Positions 14,381 through 30,627 of a stretch of 34,836 bases of DNA are shown piece after piece; positions within the stretch are counted from its first letter, which is position 1; every line of letters starts with the position of its first letter. The position numbers were made by a program, and so were the translations under genes. This stretch comes from a virus: IMG/VR virus record IMGVR_UViG_3300016665_000182, positions 1 through 34,836 of that record; one strand, written 5' to 3'. The notes below the pieces were generated by a model. That model had not been told where the DNA came from. It saw only the letters and a program-made list of their open reading frames with translations, and ran no database searches.

Positions 14381-14608
14381 TTATTGCACCCCAATTCCAA
14401 AGGCGCGGCTTTCGTCCGTAGCGGCTATAAGGGTTTCAATCGTTGCTGGAAGTTTCGGAATGCTTGAAAACTCATTAACGTGAAAAAAGTATGTGTGCCA
14501 TGAATTAGAGCTGTAAAAGGTAAGGCACAGCCCATCGACTGACATTAGCCACCACTCGCCGCCCCTAGGCAATAGCTTAGCCACATCCGATAAGCTCAAG
14601 TCATTCAC
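14381..14608 (-). CDS. Hypothetical small protein (GTG start)
   Basis: 75-aa ORF. The only in-frame start at its 5' end is a GTG overlapping the TerL stop. Confidence 0.35.
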   Translation of the reverse strand: MNDLSLSDVAKLLPRGGEWWLMSVDGLCLTFYSSNSWHTYFFHVNEFSSIPKLPATIETLIAATDESRAFGIGVQ

Positions 14609-15780
14609 TAGATATAACTATAAGTGCCGGTGTATTTTCCCACTTTTCGGAAAAGATCGTAAGCCATTGCCAAAGCACACACGCAATCATCATGCAGCCC
14701 CGGCGGAGCGGTGTACCTTACCCCGGTGCGGGTATATTCATATTCAAAATTCTCCAGTTCGGTTACAATCGGCCCCGCCGGGAATGTCACCTCCCTTTTT
14801 TGAATCGCAACAGCCAGCCCCTCCATTATCTGTTGCTTGCTTTGTGACGTGAACTTAAACAGTTCCACCGGGCGTTGGCGGGCAATATCTTCCCCAATCG
14901 GGTCACCTACACCAGTCGAATCAATCGCAATAGAAACAGCGGGCAAATCCAATATCTTACGGGTAGTGCTTCGCCAATCCATCTGGAAGCGATCAAAGTG
15001 GCACACGGAACCGTTTTTATCCAGCCCAATAATTACGGTAAAGTCAAAGGACTTCGCTAAGTCCACACCGTAACAAACGGCGGGAAGATTGGAAAGCGGA
15101 TAGGTGCACTGTTGGATATAGGCGTGCCCGAACGGGTTTGCTACGTTGTCGTTGAACTCTGCTAGATATTCCTGACTAAACGCCAATTCGGGTAAGTCAT
15201 GCCGCGCATCTTCAATCTCCTCCGGATCAATGTACGGGTTAGTGCTTGTGGGCATCTGCCATGCAGCCCAGCGCGCATCGTCGTTCGCCTTGTTGAAAAA
15301 GCGGAAAAAGTCATTCTTCCCCTTTGGGGTGGACATAAACCAGCCGTCCCCCTTTAAATCGGTTAGGGTCGGACGGATAGCCTCATTCCAACGCTTTAAT
15401 AGGTCTTTGGTAAATGCAGCCTCATCGACTATTACCCGCTTGTATTTCCGGGAACGTCCGGCCAGTTCATTTTCCAGCGTCCAAAATTCTATCCGTCCCC
15501 CGGTTATTAGTTCTATAAACTGATGCTCATTCTTACGGGCAATTAGCGGACTTAATGCCGTTACACATTCGGTATAGGTGCCGTCCAGTAGTTTGTAAGT
15601 AGGGGTAAAATATCCCGCCGGGTGCCCACCTAGGGCCATCTCTGCCAGCAGGTTAACGGCTAGGGCGGACTTACCGAAGCGGCGACCACAACACAACACA
15701 TTGAAGCGGCGTGCCTCATTTAGCACCCGCTCCTGCCCCGCATGGGGTCTGTTAAGTGTTATGTTAATTTCCCTGCTCAA
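14608..15780 (-). CDS. terL: Terminase large subunit
   Basis: Walker-A-like CCGRRFGKS, Walker B VIVDEAAF, and a C-terminal nuclease-like half (GVDLAKS...DFTV, DSTGVGD). TTG start overlapping the TerS stop (TTGA). Confidence 0.85.
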   Translation of the reverse strand: MSREINITLNRPHAGQERVLNEARRFNVLCCGRRFGKSALAVNLLAEMALGGHPAGYFTPTYKLLDGTYTECVTALSPLIARKNEHQFIELITGGRIEFWTLENELAGRSRKYKRVIVDEAAFTKDLLKRWNEAIRPTLTDLKGDGWFMSTPKGKNDFFRFFNKANDDARWAAWQMPTSTNPYIDPEEIEDARHDLPELAFSQEYLAEFNDNVANPFGHAYIQQCTYPLSNLPAVCYGVDLAKSFDFTVIIGLDKNGSVCHFDRFQMDWRSTTRKILDLPAVSIAIDSTGVGDPIGEDIARQRPVELFKFTSQSKQQIMEGLAVAIQKREVTFPAGPIVTELENFEYEYTRTGVRYTAPPGLHDDCVCALAMAYDLFRKVGKYTGTYSYI

Positions 15781-16220
15781 TCCTCTGTCGGCTTCGGTTT
15801 GTCTGAATAGCTTACCACAACCTTAACCTCTCTGCTTCCAGTTTCTTCAGTCTGCTCTTTCAGGTTGTTTAATCGTTGCGTAATTGATGGATTGTAAATG
15901 CCAGCCATGCCGCCTTCGATCTGATCTTCCCTAATCTTACGGCGTATTGTGCGGGAGATATCGGAAAATTCGCTATATTTCCCGTTTCGGTTGCTGAAAT
16001 AATCCCATAAGTAGCTAGTAATTCCAGCGTCAAAAACATAGTTTTCAAAGCCTTCAATAGTTAGCGGACGTTCTTTTAGCCGGTAAACTTCCTGTCCATC
16101 TTTACCTACAAAGTCATGCACTTTGATCGGGTTAGCCTTTACCCACTCCCTATATTTAGTAAAAAGCTCCCACATGATAGCGGGGCTTTCTATGTTCCGG
16201 GGTCTTCCTTTCTTTGCCAT
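15777..16220 (-). CDS. terS: Terminase small subunit
   Basis: The N-terminal KKGRPRNIESP..MWELFTKYREWVKANP and the C-terminal EDQIEGGMAGIYNPSI are typical of small terminase/gp3-type packaging proteins. Lies directly upstream of terL. Confidence 0.7.
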   Translation of the reverse strand: MAKKGRPRNIESPAIMWELFTKYREWVKANPIKVHDFVGKDGQEVYRLKERPLTIEGFENYVFDAGITSYLWDYFSNRNGKYSEFSDISRTIRRKIREDQIEGGMAGIYNPSITQRLNNLKEQTEETGSREVKVVVSYSDKPKPTED

Positions 16221-17427: not shown

Positions 17428-17631
17428 TTATGTTTTATTGGGTGTCAATTTATTACTAACATACTCTCCTATTAACTCCGCTACTGTCCTGCATCCGTTT
17501 GCGCCCCTTGCCCGTAGCAGGTGGGTGCAAATAGTGTTCGGTGACTTGTTTAGTTGTTTACTGATCTCTTTTTGTGTAAATCCCTCTGAAAGTAGTTCGA
17601 CTATCTGCTTTTGCGTTTTGCTTAGTTTCAT
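17428..17631 (-). CDS. LuxR/GerE-type HTH DNA-binding protein, 67 aa
   Basis: LSKTQKQIVELLSEGFTQKEISKQLNKSPNTICTHLLRA fits the GerE HTH pattern. Confidence 0.7.
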   Translation of the reverse strand: MKLSKTQKQIVELLSEGFTQKEISKQLNKSPNTICTHLLRARGANGCRTVAELIGEYVSNKLTPNKT

Positions 17632-17843
17632 TTTAGTTTTTCATTTACTTTATCGTGTAATAAAATAGCCGCTATTGCCTTTGCGCTGTCCATAGTGTTC
17701 GTGGAAAGTCTATAACTGCCATTTTCGTAAAGCCTGTATTTCCCTTCCCGGTAGTAAATACGGTAGCCGTACTGATCGGACGTTTCGTTATTGCCTTTAT
17801 CTTTCCATTTTTGCTGAAGCTCATCCGGAATATCTATTGTCAT
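17628..17843 (-). CDS. Hypothetical protein, 71 aa
   Basis: ORF with overlap coupling at both ends. Confidence 0.5.
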   Translation of the reverse strand: MTIDIPDELQQKWKDKGNNETSDQYGYRIYYREGKYRLYENGSYRLSTNTMDSAKAIAAILLHDKVNEKLK

Positions 17844-18847
17844 CCCTTTACCATTTTAATTTTTTGCCGTAAGCTGTCCAAACGGCTTAAGTAGTCCGCT
17901 TTTGCTTTTTCGGGGCATGTTCCTTTGGGAACCTCAATCCATGTATGCCGGTCGATTTTCACGCGGGTAATGCTTGCCGGGTCGATCTTACGGGTAGCAT
18001 AAATTTTCGGGGTGATCTTTGGCGGTTTAGTGTTAATAGTAATTGGCCGGGGTTTATGTACCGTAACGGTAATTTTAGGGGCTTTTTCCGCTTTAGGTTG
18101 CTTTTCGGGCTTGGCCACCTTAATAACCTTACTCGGTTTGTTTGTCTTGCTTTTCGCGTTGTTCCACTTTACATACCAGTTTTCTAAATCAAAATTGAAA
18201 TAGTCCCCGTCCTTCGGATAGGCTGCGGCGCATTGTGGAACGGGATTCCCTGCCTGCTCAAATAGGTAGTTAATGTACTTTTTCCGTAACCTCGATGAAA
18301 GAAAGATATACCGGCATAGGATTCCTTTTTTGTCGACAATATCTTTAAAGTAGGGGTAGCTGTCCGCTCCCTTTGGGCGTTTGAGATTAGCCTTAAGTTG
18401 TTCCGGCGTCCTCTTTAGACCCATGCGCATAAAGTAGGAGCGTGCCGTTTCAGGACCTACGCCTAAATGCTCCGCCATTATTCGGAAAGGCAAACCGGAA
18501 TTTTCGCGTATCCAGTCCATTTGCTCCGGGGTCAGCTTTTTCCGCGCTTCTGCAAATTGTTCGCGGGTGCGGTTGAACTTCAACTTTCTGATCTTATTGC
18601 ACAGACTGTCTACTGTAATGCCCAGTTTTTCGGCCAACTGTTTCCGGGGCGCGTCTAGGTTTTCAGATATTATTTTAATCTCTTCGGCGGTAAAACGCTT
18701 TTGCGGTTGCGTTAATCCCATGCGCCCTATTCGGTTGTTTAATCCGGCGTGCGAAATTCCTAGCTTTTTAGCCAGCTCTTTTCGGGGCATATCTAAGTTT
18801 TGCCGAACAAATTCAATCTCTTCGGGAGTTAGTTGTTTAAAGCTCAT
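17840..18847 (-). CDS. Triple-HTH DNA-binding protein with a degenerate HNH-like segment and a Lys/Pro-rich tail
   Basis: Three ~40-aa repeats: LTPEEIEFVRQNLDMPRKELAKKLGISHAGLNNRIGRMGL, FTAEEIKIISENLDAPRKQLAEKLGITVDSLCNKIRKLKF and LTPEQMDWIRENSGLPFRIMAEHLGVGPETARSYFMRMGL. These are followed by YPKDGDYFNFDLENW and a K/P-rich region. Confidence 0.65.
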   Translation of the reverse strand: MSFKQLTPEEIEFVRQNLDMPRKELAKKLGISHAGLNNRIGRMGLTQPQKRFTAEEIKIISENLDAPRKQLAEKLGITVDSLCNKIRKLKFNRTREQFAEARKKLTPEQMDWIRENSGLPFRIMAEHLGVGPETARSYFMRMGLKRTPEQLKANLKRPKGADSYPYFKDIVDKKGILCRYIFLSSRLRKKYINYLFEQAGNPVPQCAAAYPKDGDYFNFDLENWYVKWNNAKSKTNKPSKVIKVAKPEKQPKAEKAPKITVTVHKPRPITINTKPPKITPKIYATRKIDPASITRVKIDRHTWIEVPKGTCPEKAKADYLSRLDSLRQKIKMVKG

Positions 18848-18917
18848 GTGTATTATTTTTTACTACCCGGTTCCGCCGGGTGCGGTTTATGCGTAAAGCG
18901 GCGCGTTGGGCGCAATT

Positions 18918-19253
18918 TTACGGACGCATCATAACATTGGCTCTTTTACATAGTTCATCAATTTCTGTAAGTGATTTTTTGCCAAGATTTCTGCATTTTA
19001 TTAATTCCTCTCGTGAAACATTTGCTAAGTCTTTAACAATACTATCAAATTGATTAAGATTAAAATTATTAAAAAACAACACATTTAATGCTCTAACTGA
19101 TAAACCCGTTACAAAAGTGTCTGCGAGCTTTGTGTTTCTTAATTCAAAGTATTTATCTGTGTTTTTATCTATTTCTGCAATTACAGAAATGCATTGTTCC
19201 CTGTATTGTTTTACAATTTGCAACGCTTTTTGATATTCTTCGTTTGTAATCAT
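18918..19253 (-). CDS. RNA polymerase alpha-subunit C-terminal-domain (alpha-CTD)-like protein, 111 aa
   Basis: LSVRALNVL ... NLGKKSLTEIDEL. The decapeptide NLGKKSLTEI is identical to E. coli RpoA CTD as I recall it, and LSVRALNVL parallels LTVRSANCL. The ATG at 19253 is preferred over the tracked TTG at 19286. Confidence 0.75.
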   Translation of the reverse strand: MITNEEYQKALQIVKQYREQCISVIAEIDKNTDKYFELRNTKLADTFVTGLSVRALNVLFFNNFNLNQFDSIVKDLANVSREELIKCRNLGKKSLTEIDELCKRANVMMRP

Positions 19254-19369
19254 GTTTAAAAACTGCGCCCAACAACCGCTTGCCAATATGCGGGCGACAT
19301 TACCACATTGACAAGTGCCGTGTTTAAATCCCGCACATCGGCAAGCGGGAGAACGTTATAAGCAAGCTG

Positions 19370-20005
19370 CTACGGAAGCTCTCCGAATAAACCGACCTGC
19401 TCATAATCTTTTTTAATTAAAATTTTTCCAACCGCACAATTAAGAATGTGAAGTCCTAACTCTGAATTAACAGCGTTTCTATCTTCTAAACTTTTATCGT
19501 GGGCATGTTTGCCAGTTCCTACATACTGTTTCATCATCGTTCCTATCTCGTTTTTAGGCATTTCAATTACAGGTATTCTAAAGTTGCTCCAAATAAAGTG
19601 CCTGCCAATTTTAGTGTATTGTGGCAAAAATGGTTCGTAAAATGGTATCACATTTTCAACCATCCATAAGCCCTTGAAAAATTGGTTTAAGAATATAATC
19701 TCTTGCCACAATTTCATATCAGGGTATGTAGGCACTTTTCTTATTGCTTGTGTAAAGTAATTTGTTCGGCTATGAGTTGGGCAAGGAAGCGAGCTCCAAA
19801 TGATATTAAACCGCTTGTAATTATGCAATAAGTATTCGTGTGCGTCTGCTACAATTACAATATCATTTGTGTATCTTCTTTGATATTCGGCAGCAACTTT
19901 AGGATTAATTTCTACGGCTGTAATTTCGTATTCATCGCCCCAAAGCTCTCGGTTTCCACCAATGCCACAATACAAGTTCAATATTTTTATTTTCTCTTTT
20001 TCCAA
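19370..20005 (-). CDS. Compact cytosine-C5 DNA methyltransferase-like protein, 211 aa
   Basis: Motif I LYCGIGG, motif IV SSLPCPTHS (PC dipeptide), motif VI MVENV, and a possible motif X NCAV. AT-rich gene. TTG start, with no in-frame ATG near the N-terminus. Confidence 0.6.
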   Translation of the reverse strand: MEKEKIKILNLYCGIGGNRELWGDEYEITAVEINPKVAAEYQRRYTNDIVIVADAHEYLLHNYKRFNIIWSSLPCPTHSRTNYFTQAIRKVPTYPDMKLWQEIIFLNQFFKGLWMVENVIPFYEPFLPQYTKIGRHFIWSNFRIPVIEMPKNEIGTMMKQYVGTGKHAHDKSLEDRNAVNSELGLHILNCAVGKILIKKDYEQVGLFGELP

Positions 20006-20159
20006 CGCTTCAAAAATTTTAATTAAAAAAGGTTTCGTGTTCCAATTTTAGTTTTGTGCCAACCAACCGCAGCCAGCTTATAACAGCGGTTTTGTGCAAG
20101 CTGCCCGACACACAAACCAACGCTTCGCAGCCTGACACAAAGCCGCAAAACGTTAGCGG

Positions 20160-21209: not shown

Positions 21210-21614
21210 TTAAGTTTCATGTGTGCTTATTTTTTCTTTGTAGTGTTCAATAATCTGTTCTAGCTCTTCGCGTGTCCATTTGTAGACTTTGTTTGCCATA
21301 TAGTCTGCTTCTAACCGGTTTACTTCGGCCTCTCCGATCTTCTTAATTAGGTTCAATCGGTAGGCTATCTGGTTCCCGTGTAAGTGGCAGTTACAGTAAG
21401 AACATTGTAAATGTATGTTACTTTCTTCAAACCGCAAAAAAGAACTCTGATTTACCGCGATAAAGTGCCCCGCTTGATTGGCTTTGTCCGATCCACAAGA
21501 TATACACGGCTTTCCCGCGTCCCGTAGTCGTATGTACTTATTACACAATTCCTGTGCCTTTGCTTTCAGCTTTGGGATCGGCACTACCTTAGTGGCTTTC
21601 TTTTTCATTCTCAT
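21210..21614 (-). CDS. ninG: NinG/Rap-like recombination endonuclease
   Basis: CISCGS...QAGHFIAV..SSFLRFEESNIHLQCSYCNCHLHGN matches the lambda NinG-family Cys/His pattern. Confidence 0.7.
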   Translation of the reverse strand: MRMKKKATKVVPIPKLKAKAQELCNKYIRLRDAGKPCISCGSDKANQAGHFIAVNQSSFLRFEESNIHLQCSYCNCHLHGNQIAYRLNLIKKIGEAEVNRLEADYMANKVYKWTREELEQIIEHYKEKISTHET

Positions 21615-24687: not shown

Positions 24688-26898
24688 TTAAAATAAAACG
24701 CCTTGTTTTTGTTCCTCAATTGCTTTTGAGCAGTTTTTGATAGCTGTTTTAAAATAGCTATCTTTTAGTTCGATACCAATAGCTTTTCGGCCATTTTTTA
24801 ATGCCATATAACATTCAGAGCCAATACCTAAAAATGGCGTAAAAACAGTTTCCCCTTTATTACTCCAAAGGTTTACCAGTCTATGAATTACTTCTAATTG
24901 CAAAGGTGCGATATGCTTTTCGTCGCCAAGATCGGTACCTTCCTTACCGTTTAAAACATCCGTTCTTTGTATGTCCATCCATACGGGAGATGCCCATTTT
25001 TGCCACACATCAAGCGGAAAATTTTGTTTATTTAGAGAAGTAACAGGCACCCAATCATCTTCATTTCCATCCCACTTCCTAAATATAGTAATATATTCAG
25101 CCATCCCTATACCCGTATAACTTGAATCGGTTGTAACTGTTTTGTATAACAATCTTTGTGTTTTTGTTCGCTGCATTTCAAGTACCGGATCGCACCAAAT
25201 TGTAATTTTTGAATGTAATTTAAACCCCTCTTTTAACACCGATCGCGTGTGATCTCCAGTAAAATCATACATGCCAGTATAACCTGACGAGTTTTTATAG
25301 ACTCCTAAATCCTTCGTATGACAACACATTAAACGTCCCGGTTTTAGTTTAGCGTATAATTTGCGCAATAGATACGCATATTGCTCAAAAAACTGTTCAT
25401 GTGTTTCATTATTACCCATATCATGTATGTAATTTGAATAGGTAAATAGTGAGGAGAACGGCGGAGAAAAAATGATCAGATCTAGTGAATTATCTTCAAT
25501 TCGATCTATTTCAATACATGAATCTCCATGCATTAGCCACATATCATTTGTTTTATGTTCCTCAAATATGTAACTATTAAGCAGGCCATATTTTTCACCA
25601 TTTACATGACGGTTCATTTCATTTTGCATTTCTAAAAATTGTTTTTCTTTTTTTCTAATTGAATGAATTACATTTTCCATTGTATCGGTAGTGATTAAAT
25701 AAATATTAACCGACTTTTTCTGACCAAACCGATACGATCTACGAATTGATTGATATAACCCTTCAAATGAAAAATCTAAAGATGCAAATACTTGATTATT
25801 GCAATGCTGATAGTTCATACCAAATTGTGCAATTTTGGCTTTTGTTATCAGTACCCGAAAATCTCCATTTGCGAAACCTAACAGATTTTTTTCTTTTATT
25901 TCTGGACTATCTGAGCCGCTTACTTCCACCGCTCCGGGTATTAATTTTCTAAGCAATTCGCCTTCCTCATTGTGTTTAATCCATACAATAAATGGCTCAT
26001 TTGAAGCGTTTACAATTTCTGCTACTTGTTCAATTCTTTCTAATCGAGTTAATCTTAACTCTTGATTAAAATTAGTTGCCGAAACGTGGCCGCTTGCAAA
26101 TAGCCTATCTTCTTGCCTACATTTCACTTTTATTTCGCGCTCAACAAATTTTAATTCAGGAAGATTATACCCTTCCATGTGGAACCCAATATCGGAAGGT
26201 TTTGATAGCATAATTGCCCAAGATGATACCCATCCATAAAAGTCAGATTTAGCATGAGATTTTAAACGGTAGTTATTCATACCCTCTTCCCGAACAAACC
26301 AACGTGAACGCATATCCTGAGCGTCTAAAACATTTAAAAATTCACTATGGTTACCGATTTCATTTAGATCGTTAGGGGATGGAGTTGCTGTGCAAGCTAA
26401 TTTAAACGGAGTATGTTTAAATGTTTCTAATAATTTCCGTTTTGTTGCACCAGTAAAATTTTTTAGAATTGAACTTTCATCTAATACAATCCCTGAAAAT
26501 TTATCGATGCACGAAATGTTATCTAATTGTTCATAATTAGTGACGTAAATAGTAGGCGACAATTCTTTAATATGATCGGCATCAATTAATAGTCGTACTG
26601 CCTCAATGTTAAATGTTTGCGCTTGTTTAAGTGTTTGCCCAGTTACGGCTAATGGTGCCAAAATCAGTACGGGCATGTTTGTGTGCTGTACTACGCGTCT
26701 TGCCCATTCTAACTGCATGAATGTTTTTCCCAATCCACAATCGGCAAAAATTGCAAATCTTCCAGCCTTTAAAGCTCTTTCGACAATATGCCGTTGAAAT
26801 GGGAATAGTGATTCGTGTAATTCATTAGGCGTAAATCCAGCATCTTTTATTTTTAAGATCTTCCGTTGCAAGATTTCATCGTAAGTTTTAGCTTTCAT
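24688..26898 (-). CDS. SNF2-family helicase fused to a beta-class N6-adenine/N4-cytosine DNA methyltransferase
   Basis: Helicase motifs ADCGLGKT (I), VLDESS (II), TATPSPN (III) and RRSYRFGQKK (VI). Methyltransferase motif IV IIFSPPFSS comes before motif I VFTPFLGIGSE...AIGIEL. The gene is visibly AT-richer than the backbone. Confidence 0.8.
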   Translation of the reverse strand: MKAKTYDEILQRKILKIKDAGFTPNELHESLFPFQRHIVERALKAGRFAIFADCGLGKTFMQLEWARRVVQHTNMPVLILAPLAVTGQTLKQAQTFNIEAVRLLIDADHIKELSPTIYVTNYEQLDNISCIDKFSGIVLDESSILKNFTGATKRKLLETFKHTPFKLACTATPSPNDLNEIGNHSEFLNVLDAQDMRSRWFVREEGMNNYRLKSHAKSDFYGWVSSWAIMLSKPSDIGFHMEGYNLPELKFVEREIKVKCRQEDRLFASGHVSATNFNQELRLTRLERIEQVAEIVNASNEPFIVWIKHNEEGELLRKLIPGAVEVSGSDSPEIKEKNLLGFANGDFRVLITKAKIAQFGMNYQHCNNQVFASLDFSFEGLYQSIRRSYRFGQKKSVNIYLITTDTMENVIHSIRKKEKQFLEMQNEMNRHVNGEKYGLLNSYIFEEHKTNDMWLMHGDSCIEIDRIEDNSLDLIIFSPPFSSLFTYSNYIHDMGNNETHEQFFEQYAYLLRKLYAKLKPGRLMCCHTKDLGVYKNSSGYTGMYDFTGDHTRSVLKEGFKLHSKITIWCDPVLEMQRTKTQRLLYKTVTTDSSYTGIGMAEYITIFRKWDGNEDDWVPVTSLNKQNFPLDVWQKWASPVWMDIQRTDVLNGKEGTDLGDEKHIAPLQLEVIHRLVNLWSNKGETVFTPFLGIGSECYMALKNGRKAIGIELKDSYFKTAIKNCSKAIEEQKQGVLF

Positions 26899-29915: not shown

Positions 29916-30160
29916 AAAAATTCGATTTTTTCGGCTTCGATATTTTTTCGGTGGAAAATAAACAGCACCAATGTTAGCCGCGCTTGTTCCCATCCCTCAT
30001 TTTGATCGGCCTCTAAAAAGTATTTAATCAAATTAGTTTTTGTTACAAGGTCAGAAACTTCATAAGTAATACCGTGTTTTCCCACGTAGGTAATGCACAC
30101 ATGGACTTTTCCGTATGGGGCCGGATAGATATTAATGCCGGTTACTTTTACTTTTTTCAT
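29912..30160 (-). CDS. Small protein, paralog 2 of a duplicated family
   Basis: MKKVKV...YPAPYGKVHVCITY...GWEQARLTL...IEAEKIEFL aligns with the product of 30664..30915. Confidence 0.6.
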   Translation of the reverse strand: MKKVKVTGINIYPAPYGKVHVCITYVGKHGITYEVSDLVTKTNLIKYFLEADQNEGWEQARLTLVLFIFHRKNIEAEKIEFL

Positions 30161-30627
30161 GATATGTATTTAAGGATTATTTCAGCTTGTTTTTCGCGGG
30201 CGGAATCGTAGTCTGCAGCGGCATCGGCGGCGGCATCGGAGGCAAAAGCGGCGGCATATGCGGCATCGGCGGCAGAATCGGCGGCATGGGCATCCTCCTT
30301 GCTAATCAAACCATTTGCATAGTCACGCGCTGCCTGAATAGCTTTGCGCGGGCGGTTATCGTTGGGGTACTTATCTTCGTATATGTGTAATACTTGCTCT
30401 GCGAAGTCGGCAGCCATAAGCCGCCATGTACAGTCGTATTCCGAAGGGAAACAACGGAAAGCCCATATACAATCCTGCACTCCGTTAATGCTAAGAATAT
30501 CCCGAAGATGCAAAGGCTCATTGTCTGCTTTGGTCTTACCCAAACCGGACAATAGTTTTTCCCAGCCATCTTTGCAGGGGTTATGTGCTTTGATTGCGTT
30601 AAGTGTGGTAATGAATGTTAGTGCCAT
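30157..30627 (-). CDS. Ala/Asp-rich helical protein resembling Imm5-like 'immunity' proteins
   Basis: HNPCKDGWEKLL...INGVQDCIWAFRC...YPNDNRPRKAIQAARDYANG, followed by AADSAADAAYAAAFASDAAADAAADYDSA. The family resemblance is from memory only. Confidence 0.55.
   Translation of the reverse strand: MALTFITTLNAIKAHNPCKDGWEKLLSGLGKTKADNEPLHLRDILSINGVQDCIWAFRCFPSEYDCTWRLMAADFAEQVLHIYEDKYPNDNRPRKAIQAARDYANGLISKEDAHAADSAADAAYAAAFASDAAADAAADYDSAREKQAEIILKYIS

Follow-up and report, generated by a model that had tools for sequence, protein, structure and literature searches.

The window analysed here is the entire 34,836-nucleotide stretch of DNA of the IMG/VR virus record IMGVR_UViG_3300016665_000182. 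It represents a phage genome, encoding TerS, TerL, a portal protein, a tape measure protein, NinG, ERF, a primase and an endolysin-type peptidase, with all of its genes carried on the minus strand. Among these lies a small open reading frame for a protein of 111 aa, MITNEEYQKALQIVKQYREQCISVIAEIDKNTDKYFELRNTKLADTFVTGLSVRALNVLFFNNFNLNQFDSIVKDLANVSREELIKCRNLGKKSLTEIDELCKRANVMMRP, and the features found within and around this gene are summarised in Table 1. The gene order listed there places it at the junction of the early and late regions of the window. TerL, which gave no host assignment, is only 34% identical to that of the nearest cultured phage and, on this basis, the phage is considered to be novel.

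A mechanical listing of open reading frames gave the gene in a longer, 122-aa form starting from a TTG codon at 19286. This form is a gene-calling artefact: the extension shows no protein conservation in the homologous loci L016, L017 and L001, and it overlies a covarying RNA/DNA helix described below. For both reasons the ATG codon was taken as the start, and it is maintained, within the sequence MIT, in all homologues. The gene has a GC content of 29.2%, the lowest among the 50 genes of the window (mean 43.4%, sd 4.6), in agreement with the original prediction, made from the sequence, that it is AT-rich relative to the phage backbone; the horizontal acquisition which was suggested on those grounds is also supported. 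The 116-nt leader and 70-nt trailer of the gene show 50–53% GC. No second gene of this kind emerged when the six-frame ORFs of the window were all scanned with a family HMM.

Table 1. The alpha-CTD gene, its parts and its neighbours, with positions numbered along the window.
Feature	Position	Strand	Remarks
Upstream block in order of transcription: M15 peptidase, ERF recombinase, helicase-methylase fusion, Toprim primase, NinG	NinG 21210–21614	minus	
Three small ORFs and DNA methyltransferase	methyltransferase 19370–20005	minus	followed by the alpha-CTD gene
Mobile or mosaic cassette (leader, ORF and 3' arm)	18904–19367	minus	463 nt, 95.7–95.9% identical in three other contigs, L007, L008 and L009
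GC-rich leader hairpin	19276–19348	minus	19-bp stem (19276–19294 with 19330–19348), 35-nt loop; common to L007, L008 and L009
5' arm of 16-bp long-range helix or inverted repeat	19259–19274	minus	ends 5 nt upstream of AUG
Stand-alone alpha-CTD ORF	18918–19253	minus	ATG at 19253, TAA at 18920–18918
N-terminal amphipathic helix, residues 4–32	19158–19244	minus	helix in AF2 model, pLDDT >90; family-specific
alpha-CTD domain, residues 38–109	18927–19142	minus	hhalign, Pfam PF03118, Foldseek
First helix-hairpin-helix, LSVRALNVL, residues 51–59	19077–19103	minus	R54 = E. coli R265, N57 = N268
Segment between CTD helices 1 and 2, residues 60–72, FFNNFNLNQFDSI	19038–19076	minus	net 6-residue family-specific insertion
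Second helix-hairpin-helix, NLGKKSLTEI, residues 89–98	18960–18989	minus	= E. coli RpoA 294–303
3' arm of 16-bp helix	18904–18919	minus	begins inside the stop codon
Triple-HTH regulator (335 aa) and 71-aa ORF	regulator 17840–18847	minus	downstream of the alpha-CTD gene
Sigma-70 region-4/LuxR-type HTH protein (67 aa) and two ORFs	HTH protein 17428–17631	minus	
TerS, TerL, then tape measure, tail fibre and portal	TerS 15777–16220; TerL 14608–15780	minus	

A free RNA polymerase alpha C-terminal domain

Residues ~38–109 of the protein constitute a genuine RNA polymerase alpha C-terminal domain (alpha-CTD) by sequence, profile and fold. Pfam model PF03118 (RNA_pol_A_CTD) matches residues 50–100 with 39.7 bits, above its gathering score of 23.8 (E 3.9e-10), and the Pfam search of the protein yielded nothing else of significance. 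Comparison by phmmer with the sequences of the PDB returned almost exclusively RNA polymerase alpha chains, headed by two 330-aa alpha subunits, 8dkc_A (E 2.3e-7) and 9n9p_A (E 6.6e-5). When an alignment of 125 family members was compared by hhalign with 21 Bacteroidota RpoA fragments, residues 38–109 were aligned with a probability of 99% (E 5.5e-18), and the similarity reached into the segment preceding the helix-hairpin-helix (HhH) motifs, where LRNTKLAD in the protein is matched by LLKTKLAD in RpoA.

Structure prediction led to the same assignment. An AlphaFold (AF2) model based on 18 close homologues alone attained a pLDDT of only 56 and was superseded by a model based on a 63-sequence alignment of close homologues, divergent family members and Bacteroidota RpoA CTD fragments. 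The latter (pLDDT 93.9, pTM 0.77) consists of a long helix, residues 4–32, followed by the helices of the alpha-CTD. Its matches in a Foldseek search of the PDB included the alpha-CTDs of E. coli (1lb2 chains B/E, 3n4m_B, 1coo and 3k4g) and of Thermus (1doq), with rmsd values of 2.7–3.0 Å over 64–73 columns, target-normalised TM scores of 0.59–0.73 and probabilities of 0.87–1.0, the shortness of the domain accounting for the modest E-values (0.1–0.8). Weaker fold matches were obtained for Rad51 N-terminal domains and LigA. The stand-alone alpha-CTD-like protein that had been proposed is thus upheld by the Pfam score above the cut-off, by the profile alignment and by a superposition that includes both HhH motifs.

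The motifs were aligned with residues 249–329 of E. coli RpoA, a reference sequence verified against PDB chains. NLGKKSLTEI, which the original prediction had given as identical to part of the E. coli CTD, does correspond to residues 294–303, with G91, K93 and S94 equivalent to G296, K298 and S299 (E. coli numbering). LSVRALNVL had been likened to LTVRSANCL, the E. coli string containing Arg265, and the alignment puts R54 at that position. All residues of the '265 determinant' (R265, N268, G296, K298 and S299) are present in the protein, as R54, N57, G91, K93 and S94. Across the 125 members R265 is retained in 119, N268 in 112 and G296 in 122, while position 298 is K or R in 91/125, position 299 is S or T in 103/125 and E302 is E in 118/125. 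The equivalent of D259 is acidic (D or E) in 92 of the 125. Residues 261 and 287, which contact sigma and activators, respectively, are variable across the same members, and the family proteins end near E. coli position 316, before 317/318, such that the RpoA C-terminal tail is absent. From these counts it follows that no feature of the CTD is conserved as strongly as the surface contacting DNA; the activator and sigma surfaces known from E. coli are not conserved.

Two segments set the protein apart from RpoA. One is the insertion between CTD helices 1 and 2, for which a length of 17 aa had been given; the spacing between LSVRALNVL and the next string quoted in that prediction is 15 residues, against 9 in both E. 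coli and Bacteroidota RpoA, and the net insertion therefore amounts to six residues. Within this segment F64, L66 and F69 are kept among the 18 close homologues. The other is the N-terminal helix, where A10, Y17 and Q20 are at least 90% conserved in the 125-member alignment, and this strong conservation throughout the family implies that the helix is functional and not a mere appendage.

No part of the alpha N-terminal domain (alpha-NTD) was recognised in the protein by the Pfam models PF01000 and PF01193, and the NCBIfam rpoA models (equivalogs TIGR02027/NF0035xx) scored 21–35 bits against cut-offs of 228–523. The protein is a clear member of the PF03118 domain family, yet it is no RpoA orthologue. 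We considered whether the N-terminal helix might have been left over from the alpha-NTD, as its last (dimerisation) helix together with the linker, given that the NCBIfam rpoA models aligned residues 8–108 with model positions 201–292 and that Foldseek aligned about 100 columns with full-length alpha chains. This idea was rejected: an N-terminal profile compared with RpoA by hhalign gave a probability of 0.07%, and the whole-family hhalign comparison aligned residues 38–109 only. No relative of residues 1–37 was detectable. Both the lack of an alpha-NTD and the unrelated, helical nature of the N-terminal part had been foreseen from the sequence, and both descriptions stand.

In the AF2 model, the high pTM value and the high confidence maintained through residues 33–50 suggest a fixed placement of the N-terminal helix with respect to the CTD, as opposed to a flexible tether. 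It is probable that the helix and the aromatic insertion are packed against the domain or serve in self-association, and together they point to a candidate additional interaction, beyond what would be expected of a simple decoy.

Family, probable host and mobile cassette

A word-indexed search yielded 18 stand-alone homologues, the close homologues referred to above, which are 108–144 aa long, show 61–100% identity and all bear a precomputed PF03118 match. An exhaustive profile search over 1.84 billion cluster representatives then extended the family to 830 matches at E<=1e-3. About 130 of the best 150 of these 830 clusters are 100–130-aa proteins that match the profile from end to end and share the layout of helix and CTD, and the remainder of the 150 are RpoA chains or multi-repeat alpha-CTD proteins. 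The alignment of 125 family proteins shows a mean column identity of 27%, with R54, G91 and E97 of the CTD at least 90% conserved, and several divergent members that were looked up carry no precomputed Pfam match. The family is missing from PHROGs, where the best E-value was a non-significant 0.019. No match to the protein was found by tblastn in ~50,000 deposited phage genomes, and metagenome and viral collections scanned with DNA patterns yielded nothing.

The family is large and its members are phage-borne in all contexts examined. Ten loci were inspected and all are phage-like, with genes for ERF, DnaB, NinG, DUF3127, YqaJ, methyltransferases and terminases, and one of them, a 56-kb contig, bears an integrase. 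At these loci the family gene usually has the same orientation as the replication and early genes, and its position varies, such that in other phages it follows DnaB, YqaJ, DUF3127 or even TerL. Genuine rpoA fragments (P0180) are flanked by rpsD and rplQ; in contrast, the gene in the window lies outside any ribosomal-protein/rpoA/rplQ operon, between the phage DNA methyltransferase and an HTH regulator. A BLASTP comparison of the immediate neighbours at the ten loci and the window proteome revealed no shared family and hence no conserved partner gene. It follows that the gene is an autonomous single-gene module, and that its target is more likely to be something common to the hosts, DNA or polymerase, than a phage-specific partner.

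The ancestor of the protein was the C-terminal domain of an RNA polymerase alpha subunit of Bacteroidota type. Among cellular proteins, the nearest relatives of the CTD are the RpoA proteins of Bacteroidota (Alistipes and Flavobacteriales). These relatives also bear on the host, for which the evidence suggests a member of the Bacteroidota, probably of the Flavobacteriia. A 33-nt sequence is shared exactly with 37 Flavobacterium phages and is located upstream of the methyltransferase gene in both the window and those phages. Moreover, a search for related loci with the close alignment produced only a truncated remnant, corresponding to the first 26 codons of the family gene, in a prophage of Epilithonimonas tenax.

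The gene, its leader and the downstream repeat arm are highly similar in L007, L008 and L009 (Table 1), whereas the flanking sequences are unrelated on both sides (32–37% identity). The right-hand boundary of the similarity coincides exactly with the end of the 3' inverted-repeat arm. Sequence comparison indicates a self-contained cassette of ~460 nt that moves the gene between phages.

The two arms bracketing the ORF were compared in a small sample of six sequences, with three arm versions (GTTGGGCGCA, GTTGTGCGTA and GTTAGGCGTA), in which all 96 of the 96 cells of the 16-bp helix are paired, three pairs carry compensatory double changes and none carries a one-sided change; two wobble pairs, U.G and G.U as read on the sense strand, do not vary. 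In RNAfold predictions both this helix and the 19-bp leader hairpin appear in the minimum-free-energy structure as well as in the centroid structure (z = -3.4), and the mRNA is predicted to have the 5' end of the ORF paired with the 3' end. No Rfam family was found for either the leader or the helix. The bracketing helix may be an RNA element involved in processing, stability or translational control, and the sense-strand wobbles lean towards this reading, or it may be a DNA-level inverted repeat that marks the boundaries of exchange. The helix provides a compact example of possible regulation, and shuffling between phages, of a single-gene module.

Possible modes of action

The alpha-CTD is a hub for UP elements and for many activators at strong bacterial promoters. 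Our favoured, though tentative, explanation is that the free domain is an early accessory protein which competes with the host alpha-CTD for A/T-rich upstream promoter DNA. The phage protein has kept the alpha-CTD fold and the minor-groove DNA-binding surface, lost everything required for assembly into RNA polymerase, and gained the conserved N-terminal helix and the short aromatic insertion. Made along with early or middle gene products, it would bind A/T-rich, UP-element-like DNA immediately upstream of promoters, at the positions that the tethered alpha-CTDs of the host occupy or adjacent to them, and would thereby change promoter use by the host RNA polymerase, with a dampening of strong UP-dependent host promoters as the likeliest effect. 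Since the domain is untethered, either competition with or substitution for the host alpha-CTD upstream of promoters could result. The original prediction had offered a decoy or an adaptor, a functional interpretation that is plausible as a hypothesis.

Competition at the DNA is favoured by the near invariance of the DNA-contact residues across 125 diverse members, by the ten phage-like contexts in which the gene usually runs in the direction of the replication and early genes, and by the absence of a shared neighbour from a gene whose cassette moves between genomes. Support by analogy comes from the fusions of sigma-70 region 4 with an alpha-CTD that are encoded in related phage contigs, from a Bacillus phage alpha-CTD protein specified among the first genes of its genome, and from other phages that neutralise alpha-CTD/UP-element function (G1 gp67, phiKMV Rac and T4 Alt/ModA; see below). 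An isolated monomeric alpha-CTD binds DNA weakly, and competition would therefore need high expression or oligomerisation. The conserved A10, Y17 and Q20 of the N-terminal helix, like the insertion, would be superfluous in a simple decoy. Furthermore, the location of the gene just upstream of HTH regulators and packaging genes would be compatible, too, with a positive role in the transcription of late genes.

Such a role, which we judge to be rather unlikely, would make the protein a transcription factor for middle or late phage promoters, recruiting the host polymerase as an untethered extra alpha-CTD, or co-activator, by binding A/T-rich DNA upstream of them and contacting sigma region 4 or another polymerase surface through a D259-type acidic patch or the N-terminal helix. 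The succession, in the window, of NinG and the methyltransferase upstream of the gene and of the HTH regulators, TerS and TerL downstream accords with it, as do the acidic residue at position 259 in 92/125 members and the occurrence of the sigma fusions in related phages. However, the position of the gene is not conserved in other phages, where it has no common neighbour, and the equivalent of E261 varies. We also sought a Rosetta-stone link from the 67-aa sigma region-4-like HTH protein of the window to the sigma region-4 part of the L002 fusion and rejected it, the two showing no specific similarity.

Quite unlikely, in our estimate, is that the protein serves as a general DNA-binding or architectural protein, unrelated to promoter choice, in which the HhH motifs act as a minor-groove module for replication, recombination, packaging, silencing of AT-rich DNA or protection of the phage DNA. 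HhH modules do bind DNA in many proteins with no role in transcription, among them those whose folds were matched more weakly (Rad51 N-terminal domains and LigA). Proteins with 3–10 tandem alpha-CTD repeats exist, and genes for replication, recombination and methyltransferases often surround the family gene. Nevertheless, the relationship is specifically to the CTD of RpoA and not to generic HhH families, and the sigma fusions of related phages point to promoter DNA.

More improbable is a decoy acting at the level of proteins, whereby the free domain would titrate host proteins that dock on the alpha-CTD, such as class I activators, Spx-like regulators or NusA-like factors, or would absorb an activity directed at the alpha-CTD by the modifying enzyme of a competitor phage or by a defence system. 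Titration of activators had formed part of the original prediction. The fold and the general surface of the alpha-CTD are retained, and an autonomous gene without a conserved phage partner would be in keeping with this. However, the surfaces that contact activators and sigma in E. coli (261, 287 and 315–318) are variable or absent, the surface that is conserved is the one that contacts DNA, and a mean column identity of 27% is hard to reconcile with mimicry of a single host surface. An adaptor for the regulators encoded beside the gene is argued against by the lack of any neighbouring gene conserved at the ten loci.

The broader form of our preferred explanation, competition at the DNA, is more doubtful than its core. 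It would cast this phage-borne family of free alpha-CTDs as competitive 'domain decoys' which act at UP-type DNA, or at a site beside sigma region 4, and reprogramme Bacteroidota transcription, with the cassette spreading the gene and the helix between its 5' and 3' ends perhaps serving in processing, stability or translational control and as a recombination boundary.

Comparison with known proteins

The protein resembles the CTD of RpoA in its fold, in its two HhH motifs, in its equivalents of R265, N268, G296, K298 and S299, and in the ten residues identical to E. coli 294–303. It differs in being phage-encoded, from a gene outside the ribosomal-protein/rpoA operon, and in having neither an N-terminal assembly domain nor a flexible linker; instead it carries a conserved, unrelated N-terminal helix and a 6-residue aromatic insertion, and it ends at about position 316.

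Stand-alone phage alpha-CTD proteins are already known as automatic database labels. They include five proteins of uncultured Caudovirales (A0A6J5M7I6, A0A6J5L490, A0A6J7WD60, A0A6J5MNY7 and A0A6J5NZM6), those of Mycobacterium phage Mithril and Rhodococcus phage Finch, which are Foldseek neighbours of the model, and gp5 of Bacillus phage vB_BmeM-Goe8, a tblastn match of family members and the early-lying Bacillus phage gene referred to above. These proteins are likewise small and essentially an alpha-CTD without an alpha-NTD, but they differ in their weak Foldseek matches (E at least 0.02), their identities of 17–28%, their lengths of 111–240 aa and their other extra segments. We found no functional study of any phage stand-alone alpha-CTD protein in the literature searched. 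What is novel here is a large, phage-borne family that combines the helix with the alpha-CTD, and naming it would allow better annotation of many phage genomes, given its absence from PHROGs.

The fusions, encoded at L002 5173–5637 and L003 4940–5638, are similarly phage-encoded and without an alpha-NTD, and they occur in genomes that also bear a family member (P0018). They differ in that a sigma-70 region-4 HTH takes the place of the conserved helix and in that the CTD, which matches PF03118 with 57 bits, lacks the insertion.

UP elements and the use of the alpha-CTD are poorly characterised in Bacteroidota, which tells against the competition proposal, and the family would offer a natural probe of how their RNA polymerase uses upstream promoter DNA. 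In other hosts, several phages act on the same domain. Alt and ModA of T4 ADP-ribosylate R265 of the alpha-CTD. Gp67 of S. aureus phage G1 binds sigma and blocks the binding of the alpha-CTD to UP elements (PMC3694059), while Rac of phiKMV-like phages triggers cleavage of the alpha linker (PMC7552054). The outcome proposed for the present protein is the same, namely the loss, during infection, of alpha-CTD/UP-dependent transcription from strong host promoters, but these proteins and their mechanisms are unrelated to it, since here a free copy of the domain would act by competition. No homology to gp67, Rac, Alt or ModA was detected, the Pfam, PHROG and PDB matches being to the alpha-CTD alone. 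A simple new strategy, competition by a free copy, would be added to this set by a widespread phage family that is made up of the domain itself and retains intact DNA-contact residues. If the domain-decoy reading is true, this would be, to our knowledge, the first case of a phage that counters the polymerase with a copy of one of the polymerase's own domains.

Paired elements around the alpha-CTD gene

The alpha-CTD ORF is bracketed by a 16-bp helix, or inverted repeat, that spans from 5 nt upstream of the AUG to within the stop codon. Six homologous loci were compared and their arms occur in three versions, every one of which is completely paired; the comparison yielded three compensatory double changes, and two wobble pairs on the sense strand are invariant. 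The position of the 3' arm of this helix also coincides with the boundary of the cassette.

A second, GC-rich structure, the leader hairpin, lies 5' of the ORF and is common to the three loci that share the cassette (L007, L008 and L009) and absent from more distant relatives. No second copy of it was found within the window and it yielded no match to Rfam. The coordinates of these and other features are summarised in the table.

Features of the window and of one Bacillus phage locus
Feature	Coordinates	Strand	Remarks
Helix or inverted repeat, 16 bp	19259-19274 with 18904-18919	minus	encloses entire alpha-CTD ORF
Leader hairpin, GC-rich	19276-19348		19-bp stem, 35-nt loop; upstream of AT-rich alpha-CTD ORF
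335-aa protein, three repeated HTH units	17840-18847		directly downstream of alpha-CTD gene
67-aa stand-alone sigma-70 region-4/LuxR HTH	17428-17631		after 335-aa triple-HTH gene
Hairpin, long, 18 pairs	20116-20157		between 95-aa ORF and methyltransferase leader
736-aa DEAD/ResIII helicase and N6/N4 DNA methylase fusion	24688-26898		
Early ORF, 82 aa	29912-30160		
Imm5-like protein	30157-30627		flanked by 82-aa and 83-aa paralogues
Early ORF, 83 aa	30664-30915		
Gene for 210 aa, with annotation 'RNA polymerase subunit alpha'	L019 (Bacillus phage vB_BmeM-Goe8) 1959-2591		alpha-CTD-like sequence inside

Neighbouring genes and the methyltransferase leader

The triple-HTH protein matches phrog_323, and within its gene a 71-nt sequence is directly repeated (at 18617-18687 and again at 18755-18825). 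Further away, the helicase-methylase fusion gene is unusually AT-rich relative to the rest of the genome (35% GC), and the two small early ORFs are paralogues (36% identity, E 4e-15).

Directly 5' of the DNA methyltransferase gene, 33 nt (20065-20097) are identical to a sequence occupying the same position in 37 phages of Flavobacterium (the hosts being LMO6 and LMO9), while the methylase proteins encoded downstream share only about 40% identity between the window and those phages. The shared stretch could be a leader or regulatory element that has been conserved, and the match hints at the host of the window phage. The nearby long hairpin was marked as terminator-like, but its tail lacks a clean T-run.

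Other contexts of the alpha-CTD

A decayed copy of the family is present in a prophage-like region of Epilithonimonas tenax DSM 16811 (L010 8001-8078; also in the IMG/VR record L011), where only the first 26 codons, encoding the family N-terminal helix, persist, at 69% identity, and beyond them the reading frame breaks down.

Alpha-CTDs also occur in other architectures. Library proteins P0029, P0032, P0068, P0093 and P0102 consist of 3 to 10 tandem alpha-CTD repeats and extend to at most 1031 aa, and two CTDs are present in a single RpoA (P0061). The alpha-CTD-like gene of the Bacillus phage belongs to a Herelleviridae genome, whose first 3 kb hold it among small hypothetical genes. The related phage contigs L002 and L003 carry, in addition to a family member, a fusion of sigma-70 region 4 with an alpha-CTD (L002 5173-5637 and L003 4940-5638), for which the alpha-CTD part scored 57 bits and the region 4 part 25.1 and 23.7 bits against a cut-off of 24.1. 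Such a fusion unites both of the holoenzyme modules that read promoter-upstream DNA in one small protein, free of the core-binding parts.
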